Below are positions 39,626 to 52,210 of a stretch of DNA of 64,000 bases, one piece after another. Numbering within the stretch: the first letter of the stretch is position 1; the number at the start of each line of letters is the position of its first letter. The position numbers and the translations under genes are program-made. The notes beneath the pieces were generated by a model that saw only the letters and a list, made by a program, of their open reading frames with translations, was not told where the DNA came from and did no database searches. The stretch is from the NCBI GenBank assembly GCA_017609915.1, contig JAFCDA010000001.1, positions 5,033-69,032 on the forward strand, in the 5' to 3' direction. The stretch is from Candidatus Pacearchaeota archaeon (lineage in GTDB: Archaea; Nanobdellota; Nanobdellia; Pacearchaeales; GW2011-AR1).

Positions 39626-39709
39626 TGCAGAGGATAGGATTCGAACCTATGAAGGCACTAAGCCACAAGATCTTGAGTCTTGCCCGTTTGACCACTCCGG
39701 AACCTCTGC
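39626..39709 (-). tRNA. tRNA-Leu (anticodon CAA), type II with long variable arm
   Basis: GCAGAGG-TT-CCG-GAGTGGTCAAA-CGG-G-CAAGA-CTCAAGA-TCTTG-TGGCTTAGTGCCTTCA-TAGGT-TCGAATC-CTATC-CTCTGC-A. Confidence 0.8.
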
Positions 39710-39780: not shown

Positions 39781-39894
39781 GGAGACGACCATAATAATCT
39801 GGTCACACCTGATCCGATTTCCAACTCAGAAGTTAAGCAGATTATGTTTAAGGTATTAGTTTCAGAGATGAAGTGAAGCCATAAAGTTGTCTTC
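39781..39894 (+). rRNA. 5S ribosomal RNA (stand-alone)
   Basis: GGAGACGACC...CCGATTTCCAACTCAGAAGTTAAGC (loop B / helix III signature) ...GTTGTCTTC closing helix pairs with 5' end; 114 nt. Confidence 0.7.
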
Positions 39895-39931
39895 TTTATA
39901 TTCCAAACAACTTTATATAAAAAGCCAGTAT

Positions 39932-46415: not shown

Positions 46416-46958
46416 ATGCAAGAACAAACACAAGAAATCAAAGAAAATAACATTTCTTCTTTAGAAAAGAAGACAAGATTGAACAAAGAAGAAACTAAGG
46501 AAGAATACTTTTCTATAATTAGGATTCTACAAACAGATATTCCTGGGAATAAAAAAACTTTGGTTGGTTTAACATATATTAAAGGAGTTTCTTGGGCTAT
46601 TTCTAATGCTTTATGTAAAATTCTTAATTTAGATCCTGAAAAAAAAATTCTAGATTTAGATAAAAAAGAAATAAAAATAATAGAGGATTTTTTAAAAAAT
46701 CCTCAAAACTTGCCTGAATTTTTAAAAAATAGAAGAAATGAATTTGAAACAGGAGAAGATTCTCATTTAGTTGGAGCTGAACTTGATATGAAAAAAGAGT
46801 TTGATATTAGAAGATTAAAAAAAATAAGATCTTACAGGGGATTAAGACATGCTTTTGGACATCCTACAAGAGGGCAAAGAACAAGAAGCCATTTTAGGGC
46901 TAAAGGAAAGAAAAAAGCAATTGGAGTTAAAACAAAGAAAGTAGGAAAGAAAGGATAA
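46416..46958 (+). CDS. rps13: 30S ribosomal protein S13 (uS13) with about 30-aa N-terminal extension
   Basis: IRILQTDIPGNKKTLVGLTYIKGV...RGLRHAFGHPTRGQRTRS. Confidence 0.9.
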   Translation: MQEQTQEIKENNISSLEKKTRLNKEETKEEYFSIIRILQTDIPGNKKTLVGLTYIKGVSWAISNALCKILNLDPEKKILDLDKKEIKIIEDFLKNPQNLPEFLKNRRNEFETGEDSHLVGAELDMKKEFDIRRLKKIRSYRGLRHAFGHPTRGQRTRSHFRAKGKKKAIGVKTKKVGKKG

Positions 46959-47020: not shown

Positions 47021-47668
47021 ATGCCAAAAAGAAAACGTAAAAAATATTCAAGACCGCAAAGGCCTTTTGATAAAGCAAGAATACAAGAAGAAAATCTTCT
47101 TAGAGACAAATATGGACTTAAAAATAAAAAAGAAATATGGAAAGCAGATGCTGCAATAGCAAGGATTAGAAATCTTGTAAAACAATTAATTACAAAACCT
47201 GAAGAAGAGAAAAAAGCATTTGTTAAAAAACTCCAAACAAAAGGATTTAAAGTTAATAATATTGCAGATTCTTTAGCTTTAGATAAAGAAGATTGGTTAA
47301 AAAGAAGATTACAAACAATAGTGTTTAGTAAAAAATTAGCAAGAACACCTAAACAAGCAAGACAATTAGTTGCTCATAAACAAGTATCTATTGGAAATAA
47401 AACAATTAATATTCCTTCATACCAAGTTAGTTTAGAACAAGAGCCTGAAATAAAATTAAATATTGTATTAAAAAAACCTAAAAATTCTAAAAAAGATTCT
47501 AAAGAAAAAATAGAAGAAGCTAAAAGTGAAGAGATTAAACCTGTTGAAGAGATTGCTGAAAAAACTGAAACTAAAGAACAAACCCCTAAACCTATAGAAA
47601 AACAACCTGAACAACCAATAACAAATACTAATAAAATAGAAAAAGTTAAAGAGAAAGAAAATGCCTAA
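47021..47668 (+). CDS. rps4: 30S ribosomal protein S4 (uS4) with K/E-rich C-terminal extension
   Basis: MPKRKRKKYSRPQRPFDKARI...LARTPKQARQLVAHKQVSIGNK; low-complexity tail after residue about 160. Confidence 0.9.
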   Translation: MPKRKRKKYSRPQRPFDKARIQEENLLRDKYGLKNKKEIWKADAAIARIRNLVKQLITKPEEEKKAFVKKLQTKGFKVNNIADSLALDKEDWLKRRLQTIVFSKKLARTPKQARQLVAHKQVSIGNKTINIPSYQVSLEQEPEIKLNIVLKKPKNSKKDSKEKIEEAKSEEIKPVEEIAEKTETKEQTPKPIEKQPEQPITNTNKIEKVKEKENA

Positions 47669-47897
47669 AAATCTTAAAAAAATAATCGGAACAGGAATAC
47701 TCTTATTAGCTTTAGGTGGAAATATGAATAAAAACCTTAATCCTATTCAAACAGGGGTTGCTCAAAAAAGATATATTAAACAACCAAATAATGTTGAAAA
47801 AGCAATCTATATGGGGGCTTTTGTAGGAACTTCCCTATTAGCAACTTTAGGAATTCATAAACTTCTAACTAAATATAGAACTAATGAAAATGCCTAA
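47661..47897 (+). CDS. small two-TM ORF between rps4 and rps11, hypothetical
   Basis: 78 aa, two hydrophobic helices; sits in a position normally without genes in archaeal S13-S4-S11 operons. Confidence 0.2.
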   Translation: MPKNLKKIIGTGILLLALGGNMNKNLNPIQTGVAQKRYIKQPNNVEKAIYMGAFVGTSLLATLGIHKLLTKYRTNENA

Positions 47898-48444
47898 AAA
47901 AGAAACTAAAGAAAAAATTGAGAAAGAAAAACCAAAGGTAGAAGTTAAAAAAAATAAATCAACTAATATCTCTCAAAAATCTGAAGAAAAGCCTATTGAA
48001 GATAAAAAATTAATGGGTAAAGATCCTGAAGAGAAAAAAGAGACAAAAATTGAAAAAAGAAAAGAGAAAAAAGATAGAATAGGTATTCTTAATATTTATA
48101 CTACTTTTAATAATACAATTATGAATCTAACAGACTTATCTGGAAAAAGTATTGCTAAATTTGGTGGAGGACAATCAACAAAACAAGATAGATTAAAAGC
48201 TAATCCAACAATAGCAATGTTTGTTTCTCAAAGAATAGCTGAAGAAGCAAGAGACAATGGAATAACAGGGTTTTATGTTAAAGTAAGGGCTAAAACAGGG
48301 CAAAACAACCCTGGACCAGGAGCTCATGCAGCAATTAAATCACTTACAAGAGCAGGGTTTAGAATTTTAAGTATTATGGATACTACAAAGATTCCTAGAG
48401 GAGGGCCTAAAAAGAAAGGAGGAAGAAGAGGAAGAAGACCATAA
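47884..48444 (+). CDS. rps11: 30S ribosomal protein S11 (uS11) with K/E-rich N-terminal extension
   Basis: GILNIYTTFNNTIMNLTDLSGK...GPGAHAAIKSLTRAGFRI; real start may be internal Met (about 48013). Confidence 0.85.
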   Translation: MKMPKKETKEKIEKEKPKVEVKKNKSTNISQKSEEKPIEDKKLMGKDPEEKKETKIEKRKEKKDRIGILNIYTTFNNTIMNLTDLSGKSIAKFGGGQSTKQDRLKANPTIAMFVSQRIAEEARDNGITGFYVKVRAKTGQNNPGPGAHAAIKSLTRAGFRILSIMDTTKIPRGGPKKKGGRRGRRP

Positions 48445-48478: not shown

Positions 48479-49144
48479 ATGATAAAAATACAAAATTATG
48501 ATAAAGAAAAGCAAAAGATGGGTTTTATAACAGACATGTCTTTTAATCTAGCTAATGCTATTAGGCGGAGTGTTTTAGAAATTCCAACCATGGCAATTGA
48601 TGAAGTTCAAATCTCTAAAAATGATTCTGCATTATATGATGAAATAATCGCTCATAGAATTGGTTTGGTTCCCATAAAAACAAATAAAATATCTAAAGAA
48701 ACAAAATTCAAATTAAAAGAAAAAGGACCAAAAACAGTTTATTCAACAGATATAAGCCCATCTATAGGTGTAGATTATAAATTGCCTATTGTGATTTTAG
48801 ATGAAGGGCAAGAAATTGAGATGGTTATAAATGCAAAATTAGGTAAGGGAATTGAACATATTAAATATTCTCCTGGCTTACTTTATTATTCTTATAATTT
48901 AGAACCTGAAGTTTTAGATTTCACTAATGTGAATGAAAAAGGGAAAATTAGTTATGATGAAAAAGAAATAAGAAAAGATAAATTATCAGAAGAGCAAATA
49001 AATAAAATAAAAAAATTAGATAATGTTAAAGAATTAATCATAAATATTGAATCTTGGAAACAAATAGAAGTTAAGGATATTTTTCTAAGAGCTATTGAAG
49101 TTTTAGATAGTAATTTAAGTGAATTAGGTAAGGCTGTAAAATAG
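48479..49144 (+). CDS. rpoD: DNA-directed RNA polymerase subunit D (Rpo3)
   Basis: ANAIRRSVLEIPTMAIDEVQI...IIAHRIGLVPI dimerisation motif; short form without Fe-S domain. Confidence 0.8.
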   Translation: MIKIQNYDKEKQKMGFITDMSFNLANAIRRSVLEIPTMAIDEVQISKNDSALYDEIIAHRIGLVPIKTNKISKETKFKLKEKGPKTVYSTDISPSIGVDYKLPIVILDEGQEIEMVINAKLGKGIEHIKYSPGLLYYSYNLEPEVLDFTNVNEKGKISYDEKEIRKDKLSEEQINKIKKLDNVKELIINIESWKQIEVKDIFLRAIEVLDSNLSELGKAVK

Positions 49145-49191
49145 TAAAATAATAACAATTATAAACCAAATTCTCTGCTTAATTCATATAA

Positions 49192-49275
49192 GCGGAGATG
49201 CCGGAGCGGTCAAACGGGCTTGGTTAAGGTCCAAGTGGCTTAGTGCCTACGAGGGTTCGAATCCTTCTCTCCGCA
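49192..49275 (+). tRNA. tRNA-Leu, type II; anticodon loop TTAAGGT gives apparent anticodon AAG
   Basis: GCGGAGA-TG-CCG-GAGCGGTCAAA-CGG-G-CTTGG-TTAAGGT-CCAAG-TGGCTTAGTGCCTAC-GAGGG-TTCGAAT-CCTTC-TCTCCGC-A. Confidence 0.75.
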
Positions 49276-49281
49276 TAAAAA

Positions 49282-49644
49282 ATGAGAATCACAAAAACAC
49301 AACTCAGCAAAAGAATAAAGAAAAAAACAAATCCAGAATTAGTTGAAACTATTAAATTAGCTAAGAAAAATAATCTTTTAGAATTAGGAAAAAGACTTTC
49401 TAAACCTACAAGATTACAAAAAAAAATCAATTTAGATGAACTTAATAAATTAAAAGAAGAAAAAGTTCTTATTGTTGGCAAAGTTCTTAGTAAAGGAGAG
49501 ATTAATAAAAAAATGAAGATTGCTGCATTGGGTTTTTCAGAAAAAGCTAAAGAAAAACTAGAAAAAGCAGGATGTAAAATATTTACAATAAAACATGCAA
49601 TTGAAAAAAATAATAATTTAGATGGTGTTAAAATATTAGATTAA
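49282..49644 (+). CDS. rpl18e: 50S ribosomal protein L18e
   Basis: TNPELVETIKLAKKNN...KVLIVGKVLSKGEI pattern of L18e. Confidence 0.8.
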   Translation: MRITKTQLSKRIKKKTNPELVETIKLAKKNNLLELGKRLSKPTRLQKKINLDELNKLKEEKVLIVGKVLSKGEINKKMKIAALGFSEKAKEKLEKAGCKIFTIKHAIEKNNNLDGVKILD

Positions 49645-49645
49645 A

Positions 49646-50056
49646 ATGGCAGACAAAAAAATAATAATTGATGGAAATGGAGCAATTTTTGGAAGAATAT
49701 GTAGTTTTGCTGCTAAAAAAGCATTAGAAGGAAATGAGATAGTGATTATTAATTCTGAAAAAGTTATTATTAGTGGGAATAAAAAAGATGTTCTTAAAAA
49801 ACACAAGAGAATTAGAGAGGTTGGAGGACATTCTTTAAAGGGCCCAAAATATTCAACAATTGCTTATAAAATATTAAAAAGAGGAGTAAAAGGCATGCTC
49901 CCTGATTTTAGAAAAGGAATTGGAAAACAAACTCTTTTAAGAATCAAATGTTATAATGGAGTTCCTAAAGAATTTGAAAATGAAAAAATGATTAAATCAA
50001 AAAAAACAAAACCTGGAAAATATATTAGATTAAAAGAATTAAGTGAAAAGCTTTAA
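49646..50056 (+). CDS. rpl13: 50S ribosomal protein L13 (uL13)
   Basis: IIIDGNGAIFGRICSFAAKKALEGNEIVIIN...GMLP. Confidence 0.9.
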   Translation: MADKKIIIDGNGAIFGRICSFAAKKALEGNEIVIINSEKVIISGNKKDVLKKHKRIREVGGHSLKGPKYSTIAYKILKRGVKGMLPDFRKGIGKQTLLRIKCYNGVPKEFENEKMIKSKKTKPGKYIRLKELSEKL

Positions 50057-50774: not shown

Positions 50775-51431
50775 ATGCTATTTGAATCAGTTGTAAGTTT
50801 TTTTGAAGGATTAATAAATTCAGTTCCTACAGAATATCGAATATTAGTGAGTCTTTTTATTTACACCTTTTTTATTGCAATATATGCTATCTTTATTTGG
50901 AAATTTTATAAATTTCTTGCAAGTAGAGATATTATTGAACTAAATCTAAAACAATATAATCATTCAAAATATCCTGGATTAGAGAAATTTTTTGCAGTTC
51001 TTCTTTATACTGTTGAATATATGATTATTTTGCCTTTTTTAGTATTATTTTGGTTTGCAATCTTTTCTATGTTTTTATTAATCTTATCTGAATCACAAAG
51101 TGCTCAACAAATACTTTTAATTTCTGCAGCAATTATTGCCTCAACAAGAATAAGTGCTTATATTAGTGAAGATTTATCAAAAGATATTGCAAAAATTCTT
51201 CCATTTACTGTTTTAGCAATGTTTATTTTAGGTAATCAATTTTTTAATTTAGAAACTATCTTCTTAAAAATCTATCAAATTCCTTCATTGTTTAATAATG
51301 TTGTAATGTTTATTATATTTATTTTTATAACAGAGTTTGTTCTTAGAGGAATTCATTCTATTATTCAATTAATTTATTCTTCTTCAGGAAGCTCTGGAAC
51401 TGGTGGAGGAACTTCAGTTAAGGAAGGTTGA
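50775..51431 (+). CDS. polytopic membrane protein, hypothetical
   Basis: 218 aa, about 6 TM helices, Gly/Ser-rich C-terminus. Confidence 0.4.
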   Translation: MLFESVVSFFEGLINSVPTEYRILVSLFIYTFFIAIYAIFIWKFYKFLASRDIIELNLKQYNHSKYPGLEKFFAVLLYTVEYMIILPFLVLFWFAIFSMFLLILSESQSAQQILLISAAIIASTRISAYISEDLSKDIAKILPFTVLAMFILGNQFFNLETIFLKIYQIPSLFNNVVMFIIFIFITEFVLRGIHSIIQLIYSSSGSSGTGGGTSVKEG

Positions 51432-52210
51432 GAATTAAATAAATCACAATTACTTCTAAATTCACACCATTTACATAATTTACTTGGTGTTGGAGGAAAC
51501 TCTGTTGTAGATTCAATTTTATCAATTAACCTTATGATTTCTTGTTTTAAGTTTTCAAGCTCTTGCTCTGTTCTTTTTGAGACTATTTTCTTATTAAAAG
51601 CAAGAAAATGCCAAACCAGATGCACATCATTAACATTATCAAAACTGTTTTTTATACCAATTGCATATAATGCTAATTGCCTATCTTTATCTAATTCTTC
51701 TTGAGATTTTAGAAATCCTCCTGTCTTATAGTCATGAATCTCATAAATGTTGTTATCTTTATTGTGAACTAATCTATCAATATATCCTTGAAGTTTATAT
51801 TTTCCTTCAGAATCTAAATTAATAATTATTCTTTTTTCTGTTGCAATAGTATTATCTTTGAATGGGGAATGTTTTAAAAAATAATCTATTAAAAACTTGA
51901 TTCCTTGATTAAAATAATGTTCTGCATTATATTCTTTTTTTGTTATTTGGATTTTATTATTAAAATCTTTATTCCAAAGATCAATAAAATATCTAAGAAC
52001 ATCATCTAACTGGAAGATTCTTCCTATAATAACTTGGTCATAAATAAATCTTAGAGTTTCATGGACTTTGTGCCCAAGAAAAGCTTCTATTGTCTCTTCT
52101 ATATCTGGTCTAATTCTATCAATATATCTAAATTTAAATTTAAGAGCACATTGTTCAAATGAAGCTAATCTTGAATGAGAGTAAATCACCATTTTTAAGT
52201 ATAAACTCAA
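51374..52210 (-). CDS. Cas4-like PD-(D/E)XK nuclease with four-Cys cluster (RecB-family, DUF83-like), stand-alone
   Basis: N-terminal Cys (SFEQCALKF), PD-(D/E)XK core IHDYKTG, C-terminal CKWCEFRSNC triad as in Cas4/AddB Fe-S nucleases; no cas genes or CRISPR nearby. Confidence 0.6.
   Translation of the reverse strand: MSLYLKMVIYSHSRLASFEQCALKFKFRYIDRIRPDIEETIEAFLGHKVHETLRFIYDQVIIGRIFQLDDVLRYFIDLWNKDFNNKIQITKKEYNAEHYFNQGIKFLIDYFLKHSPFKDNTIATEKRIIINLDSEGKYKLQGYIDRLVHNKDNNIYEIHDYKTGGFLKSQEELDKDRQLALYAIGIKNSFDNVNDVHLVWHFLAFNKKIVSKRTEQELENLKQEIIRLIDKIESTTEFPPTPSKLCKWCEFRSNCDLFNSQPSLTEVPPPVPELPEEE

Follow-up and report, generated by a model that had tools for sequence, protein, structure and literature searches.

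The window under analysis, a 64-kb stretch of DNA with a GC content of 25-30%, carries a tRNA gene in the spacer between the genes for RNA polymerase subunit D (rpoD) and ribosomal protein L18e (Table 1). This gene, GCGGAGATGCCGGAGCGGTCAAACGGGCTTGGTTAAGGTCCAAGTGGCTTAGTGCCTACGAGGGTTCGAATCCTTCTCTCCGCA, is called as tRNA-Leu(aag) by ARAGORN and is matched end to end by the Rfam tRNA model RF00005 (51.0 bits against a gathering score of 29, E=5.5e-8, model positions 1-71 of 71), the two callers being concordant. The Rfam alignment assigns UUAAGGU to the 7-nt anticodon loop, and the anticodon stem is formed by the pairing of CTTGG (49219-49223) with CCAAG (49231-49235). G37 and the discriminator base A73 are present, CCA is not encoded, and a long variable arm with its own stem-loop, together with A73 and an NAG anticodon, places the product among the class II leucine tRNAs. 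An earlier note on this DNA had proposed the same coordinates, AAG anticodon, five-base-pair stem and seven-nucleotide loop, all of which match ARAGORN, Rfam and the sequence; its placement of the gene between rpoD and rpl18e is likewise borne out by the Pfam domains of the flanking genes.

Table 1. Features of the window discussed in the text
Feature	Position	Strand	Evidence
tRNA-Leu(AAG), class II, 84 nt	49192-49275	+	ARAGORN, Rfam RF00005, covariation in 51 orthologues
Anticodon AAG (A34 = 49226, G37 = 49229)	49226-49228	+	Rfam alignment
Anticodon arm, 7-nt loop TTAAGGT (49224-49230)	49219-49235	+	Sequence, covariation
TTATAAA, putative archaeal TATA box, -33 to -27 from tRNA 5' end	49159-49165	+	Sequence
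rpoD (RNA polymerase subunit D), upstream neighbour	48479-49144	+	Pfam PF01193, PF01000
L18e gene, downstream neighbour	49282-49644	+	Pfam PF00828/PF17135
L13 gene, after L18e	49646-50056		Pfam PF00572
S9 gene, after L13	50194-50607		Pfam PF00380
tRNA-Leu(CAA), sole other Leu isoacceptor in the window	39626-39709	-	ARAGORN, Rfam
5S rRNA gene	39781-39895	+	Rfam, 62 bits
S13 gene	46416-46958		Pfam
S4 gene	47021-47668		Pfam
78-aa ORF between the S4 and S11 genes	47661-47897	+	
S11 gene	47884-48444		Pfam
278-aa ORF	51374-52210	-	

The tRNA gene lies within a Pfam-confirmed archaeal gene order consisting of Rpb4-like, DUF655, S13, S4, the 78-aa ORF, S11, RpoD, the tRNA, L18e, L13 and S9. The RpoD of the window has 1602 homologues, the named ones being DPANN 'Nanoarchaeia/archaeon' MAG proteins, and the closest genome records are titled Candidatus Pacearchaeota, Woesearchaeota or Nanoarchaeota. 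The other RNA genes detected in the window by ARAGORN and Rfam are tRNA-Gly(UCC), tRNA-Arg(CCU), tRNA-Leu(CAA) and 5S rRNA, and the Rfam scan of all 64 kb found no 16S or 23S rRNA gene. The 5S rRNA gene and tRNA-Leu(CAA) stand back to back, approximately 70 nt apart. Within the ribosomal protein genes, S13 and S11 possess K/E-rich N-terminal extensions reaching approximately 35 and 65 aa beyond their Pfam domains, and S4 a K/E-rich C-terminal extension of approximately 75 aa. The 78-aa ORF is without a Pfam match, as is a 142-aa ORF found at its site in relatives (for example, L201 8729-9157). The 278-aa ORF bears the cysteine cluster CKWCEFRSNC at its end and is, from its appearance, a candidate Cas4/RecB-type PD-(D/E)XK nuclease.

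Upstream of the tRNA, the TTATAAA element is preceded by an A-rich, BRE-like stretch. A positional profile upstream of 93 AAG genes is A-rich at -38 to -33, T-rich at -32 to -29, and has A at -28 to -26. This profile fits an archaeal BRE/TATA element and is suggestive of a promoter belonging to the tRNA gene itself, a signal that is weak alone, and graded as suggestive only, because of the AT-rich background of this 27% GC DNA. In the same 93 loci, positions -3 to -1 are mostly T-A-T and the base following A73 is almost always T, as a result of which ARAGORN often extends the tRNA by a spurious T-A pair, giving a length of 86 nt where 84 is correct.

Fold, covariation and sequence diversity of the tRNA gene

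Folded as a single sequence, the tRNA does not adopt a cloverleaf at minimum free energy (z=-2.1), and a register-shifted hairpin leaves a 5-nt loop at the anticodon region. The comparative evidence rests on a gap-free alignment of 51 distinct orthologues. The cloverleaf accounts for this alignment with 99.7% of cells forming standard pairs, whereas slid registers are only 44-51% paired. Both-sided changes occur in 20 of the 23 cloverleaf pairs, a covariation score that was matched by 0 of 500 shuffles; the anticodon stem covaries in all five of its pairs and is 100% paired in relatives. The 3-bp stem of the variable arm also covaries (columns 46-48 with 54-56), and the A at column 84 is invariant. 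Covariation and the low pairing of slid registers exclude both a pseudogene and the shifted minimum-energy fold. With its four cloverleaf helices and the variable-arm helix maintained by compensatory substitutions, as in a functional gene, the locus has the comparative signature of a structurally intact tRNA under purifying selection.

Position 34 of the tRNA (alignment column 35) is A in 44 of the 51 orthologues and G in the remaining 7, and the alignment bases A36, G37 and G38, corresponding to tRNA positions 35, 36 and 37, are invariant. Over all loci, AAG is represented by 88 distinct sequences and GAG by 13. No GAG sequence has fewer than 7 differences from its nearest AAG sequence, and none of the 13 differs from any of the 88 at position 34 alone; the two forms thus represent separate lineages and are neither sequencing errors nor cDNA read-outs of inosine. 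The AAG tRNA is identical to the tRNA-Leu(CAA) of the window at 62 of 84 positions, with the D-arm and variable-arm backbone common to both, and the AAG and GAG forms of the clade are identical at 69-77 of 84. This common backbone points to a native archaeal leucine tRNA, a paralogue of tRNA-Leu(CAA), in which position 34 was changed in place. A foreign or bacterial origin was considered and ruled out on the match of the backbone to tRNA-Leu(CAA) and to the clade's GAG forms. The earlier note had offered three readings of the gene. Its mis-fold option fails against ARAGORN, Rfam and the contrast in pairing between cloverleaf and slid registers, and its pseudo-tRNA option is refuted by two tRNA callers, covariation, and conservation of both synteny and the promoter-like element. 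The third option, a genuinely unusual decoding tRNA, is the one that the callers, the covariation and the conserved synteny support.

Conservation of A34 at the rpoD-L18e site

The rpoD regions of 80 GTDB species-representative genomes were scanned with ARAGORN. Downstream of rpoD, 46 loci carry AAG, 2 an intron-bearing AAG, 8 GAG, 3 UAG and 3 CAA; the other 18 are without a tRNA in the available sequence, which for several of them extends less than 1.7 kb beyond rpoD. A34 is thus present in 48 and G34 in 8 of the 62 tRNA-bearing loci, in most of which 1-980 nt separate the tRNA from rpoD upstream of it. Conservation of A34 in relatives, which the earlier note had left to be checked, accordingly extends to 48 of the 80 species-level genomes at this site. 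In a neighbour-joining tree of RpoD, none of the three deep clades is without AAG, which extends to lineages whose RpoD is 41-49% identical to that of the window; GAG turns up sporadically, nested among AAG lineages. For one species, P0053, eight assemblies made independently from different samples contain AAG. Sequence taken 10 kb to either side of RpoD homologues covered the same syntenic region and yielded no new tRNA types.

The two intron-bearing orthologues (L048 3802-3898 and L051 3802-3899) contain a 12-nt insert, CAGCTTGTAGAA, directly after G37, at the 37/38 position where archaeal tRNA introns canonically lie; ARAGORN wrongly reports these genes as undetermined, Pro or Phe. Among the 8 genomic GAG orthologues, 4 (L016, L032, L038 and L062) have A32 in a loop of the form AUGAGGN, and position 32 is U or C in every AAG form, so positions 32 and 34 may co-vary between the two. 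Two contigs with bacterial titles, L002 (JAFCCB010000007.1, 'Candidatus Dojkabacteria bacterium') and L005 (JAUUWR010000035.1, 'MAG: bacterium'), carry the archaeal rpoD-tRNA-Leu(AAG)-L18e arrangement and are probably mislabelled or mis-binned.

The window gene shares both synteny and backbone with the archaeal tRNA-Leu(GAG) orthologue group of the rpoD-L18e spacer, and departs from that group in having A34 in place of G34. On these grounds tRNA-Leu(AAG) is best read as a genuine and probably expressed tRNA, orthologous to the tRNA-Leu(GAG) usual in archaea but changed from G34 to A34, and AAG as the majority state in a deep DPANN clade of Pacearchaeota/Woesearchaeota-like archaea with small, AT-rich genomes.

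Leucine tRNA set and codon use of the clade

Metagenome contigs were scanned with a leucine backbone pattern in which the anticodon arm was left free (GGTCAAAYGG-N18-TGGCTTAGTGCC), which returned at least 120 loci. Among the 122 matches listed, the anticodons are AAG (48), CAA (31), UAG (23), UAA (13) and GAG (7), and CAG is absent. These counts indicate that CUN codons are read by UAG together with AAG or, rarely, GAG, and among the matches listed the leucine set of the clade is completed by CAA and UAA, without CAG. The earlier note's expectation of a GAG/UAG set for archaeal CUN codons therefore holds for UAG; the place of GAG is mostly taken by AAG, both in the pattern scan and at the rpoD loci. 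AAG and GAG were never found on one contig among the genome loci and the metagenome loci listed. Other family-box tRNAs in the metagenome loci listed have G34, U34 or C34 (Val-GAC three times, Thr-GGT and Gly-GCC), and no ANN anticodon other than AAG was seen in the genome and metagenome loci examined. Viral contigs scanned with the tRNA backbone pattern gave no matches. The scan and the rpoD loci together indicate that, in these AT-rich DPANN archaea, AAG has for the most part taken over from GAG and shares the CUN codons with UAG.

Codon counts for the window cover 63 ORFs and 17,572 codons. Leucine is encoded by CUU 397 times, CUC 27, CUA 97, CUG 14, UUA 1104 and UUG 145; CUU thus makes up 74% of CUN codons, and A34 is Watson-Crick complementary to this same 74%. 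In 81 rpoD genes, 213 of 254 CUU codons occupy conserved leucine columns, a share similar to that of UUA (345 of 389). Reassignment of CUU was ruled out by this placement, and comparison of these genes establishes that CUN is still leucine. The state of position 34 follows base composition: GC is 0.315 in AAG versus 0.375 in GAG genome loci (p=6e-4) and 0.328 versus 0.417 in the metagenome loci listed (p=6e-5), in tests that ignore phylogeny. In pooled counts, AAG loci use less CUC than GAG loci when other NNC/NNU boxes serve as the reference (ratio of odds ratios 0.50, z=-4.8); taken per locus, the depletion is not significant (p=0.33), and codon-anticodon co-adaptation is for this reason suggestive only. 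CUC codons persist, with 27 in the window and 238 in the pooled AAG loci.

Discussion

In eukaryotes tRNA-Leu(AAG) is standard and its A34 is converted to I34 by ADAT2/3, and in some Firmicutes the same conversion is carried out by TadA. Archaea, by comparison, have been described in reviews and surveys as late as 2026 as lacking ANN anticodons and wobble inosine (PMC8007984, PMC11066159, PMC8266599, bioRxiv 10.64898/2026.05.15.725136) as well as an A34 deaminase (PMC8007984), and a survey of 10,517 archaeal tRNAs from 220 genomes contained only 3 tRNA_ANN (bioRxiv 10.64898/2026.05.15.725136). The premise of the earlier note, a near-complete absence of A34 tRNAs from archaea, agrees with this literature and does not hold for the present lineage, where AAG predominates among dozens of species. 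The open-access papers and preprints searched contained no report that connects Pacearchaeota, Woesearchaeota or DPANN with A34 or TadA; an earlier report elsewhere is possible. What appears to be new is an otherwise ordinary tRNA-Leu with an anticodon class thought nonexistent in Archaea. The conservation and covariation described above make it very probable that this tRNA is functional and clade-wide.

We lean towards the view that A34 remains an unmodified adenosine. Archaeal LeuRS would ignore the anticodon and would thus charge tRNA-Leu(AAG) with leucine. A34 would form a Watson-Crick pair with the U of the dominant CUU codon, replacing the G.U wobble made by the GAG tRNA; CUA and CUG would be read by tRNA-Leu(UAG), and the rare CUC weakly, by A34.C pairing or by U34. 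The adenosine would stay plain, as in Mycoplasma tRNA-Thr(AGU), and the switch from G34 to A34 may have been driven by AT mutation pressure together with selection for CUU decoding. Several considerations favour unmodified A34. No archaeal A34 deaminase has been reported in the literature, and A34 is limited to the leucine box among the tRNAs sampled. The genomes are small and AT-rich, and the A/G state tracks GC content; an AT-rich, reduced genome with a dominant U-ending codon is also the setting of the unmodified A34 in Mycoplasma tRNA-Thr(AGU), which provides a precedent (PMC11066159). Furthermore, A34 tRNAs of family boxes have been tolerated or beneficial in experiments (bioRxiv 10.64898/2026.05.15.725136).

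Deamination of A34 to inosine, by a laterally acquired TadA-like enzyme or an unrecognised archaeal deaminase, is a genuine possibility, albeit one that we consider somewhat improbable. IAG would then read CUU, CUC and CUA, leaving CUG to UAG. The gene has the form of an I34 substrate, with a genomically encoded A34 in a three- or four-codon box. The AT-rich Lactobacillales present the same pattern, AAG having replaced GAG, and their A34 leucine tRNAs carry inosine where tested, made by TadA in Oenococcus and Streptococcus (bioRxiv 10.64898/2026.05.15.725136, PMC8266599), which counts against an unmodified A34. So do the persisting CUC codons, which need a decoder and whose reading without a G34 tRNA inosine would explain, and the acquisition by DPANN of bacterial wobble modification, such as the queuosine pathway, another modification of position 34, in a survey that mentions no deaminase (PMC8204110). 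The alternation of AAG and GAG at one locus, never together on one contig examined, is likewise expected of I34 tRNAs. Against inosine, archaea are described in the literature as being without I34 and its enzyme, and the bacterial systems reported for DPANN do not include TadA. A34 was seen in leucine tRNAs alone, and tRNA-Arg(ACG), the canonical TadA substrate, was not encountered, but neither was any CGN-reading arginine tRNA among those sampled. A search for the enzyme itself used the regular expression [HC]AE..PCxxC on all ORFs of the window, 80 genome loci and 120 metagenome loci, and tblastn with E. coli and S. aureus TadA sequences against 1.23 Mb of clade DNA. No CDA/TadA-like ORF was detected by motif or by tblastn; the 1.23 Mb consist of few syntenic neighbourhoods, roughly 10% of a genome, so this absence weighs little. 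K11991/tadA is also absent from Woesearchaeota comparative-genomics supplements and orthogroup tables, and DPANN genomics supplements searched for K11991, tadA and adenosine deaminase contained dCMP deaminase and cytidine deaminase entries only.

It is unlikely that A34 is otherwise modified, or that it reads all four CUN codons by superwobble with UAG partly redundant. In Mycoplasma, as in test systems of E. coli, unmodified A34 can read several or all family-box codons (PMC11066159), and all AAG loops have C32 or U32 where several GAG orthologues have A32, but the clade retains tRNA-Leu(UAG), which makes up 23 of the 122 pattern matches listed. Hardly credible at all is a pseudogene, a mis-folded call or a sequencing or assembly artefact whose A34 has no decoding role: the shifted hairpin of the single-sequence fold, with its z of only -2.1, stands against an Rfam score well above the cut-off, 20 covarying pairs in a cloverleaf that no shifted register approaches, A34 in 88 distinct sequences and independent assemblies, and conserved synteny with a TATA-like element.

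A species-rich archaeal clade with tRNA-Leu(AAG) as its probable standard CUY reader contradicts the published rule that archaea have no ANN anticodons, and this rule, together with the absence of I34, has been used in reconstructing the evolution of the genetic code and of decoding. If A34 is unmodified, as we favour, no other natural group with an unmodified A-starting anticodon would come near the clade in size, and the clade would offer a test of why such anticodons are otherwise avoided. If A34 is instead inosine, decoding by wobble inosine would be on record for Archaea for the first time, with its enzyme awaiting discovery; the deamination would call for either a TadA obtained by lateral transfer and active on archaeal tRNA, or a tRNA adenosine deaminase of a new kind. 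In either case, tRNA annotation filters and codon-adaptation models for DPANN should not treat tRNA-Leu(AAG) as an error.

Among known systems, the nearest relative is the archaeal tRNA-Leu(GAG), the canonical CUY reader, which occupies the same slot downstream of rpoD and shares the class II backbone, G37 and A73. It differs in having G34 in place of A34, and A32 in half of its genomic forms (4 of 8) where the AAG forms have U32 or C32. The closest parallel in another domain is the tRNA-Leu(AAG) of Lactobacillales (Streptococcus, Lactococcus, Lactobacillus and Oenococcus/Leuconostoc), in which AAG replaces GAG lineage-wide in AT-rich genomes dominated by U-ending codons (bioRxiv 10.64898/2026.05.15.725136). 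That system would be of independent origin, since the archaeal tRNA is built on an archaeal backbone, and its I34 is made by TadA in Oenococcus and Streptococcus. Eukaryotic tRNA-Leu(IAG), the product of ADAT2/ADAT3, is similar in having a gene-encoded A34 for the CUN box, with suppression of the G34 isoacceptor; eukaryotes, however, have A34 in up to eight boxes and an essential heterodimeric deaminase, whereas A34 in the archaeal clade is confined to the leucine box among the tRNAs sampled. Finally, the unmodified A34 of Mycoplasma capricolum tRNA-Thr(AGU) and of yeast mitochondrial tRNA-Arg(ACG) resembles the archaeal case in serving a four-codon box in a reduced, AT-rich genome (PMC11066159). 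These systems work with minimal tRNA sets, whereas the archaeal clade keeps a separate UAG isoacceptor beside tRNA-Leu(AAG).
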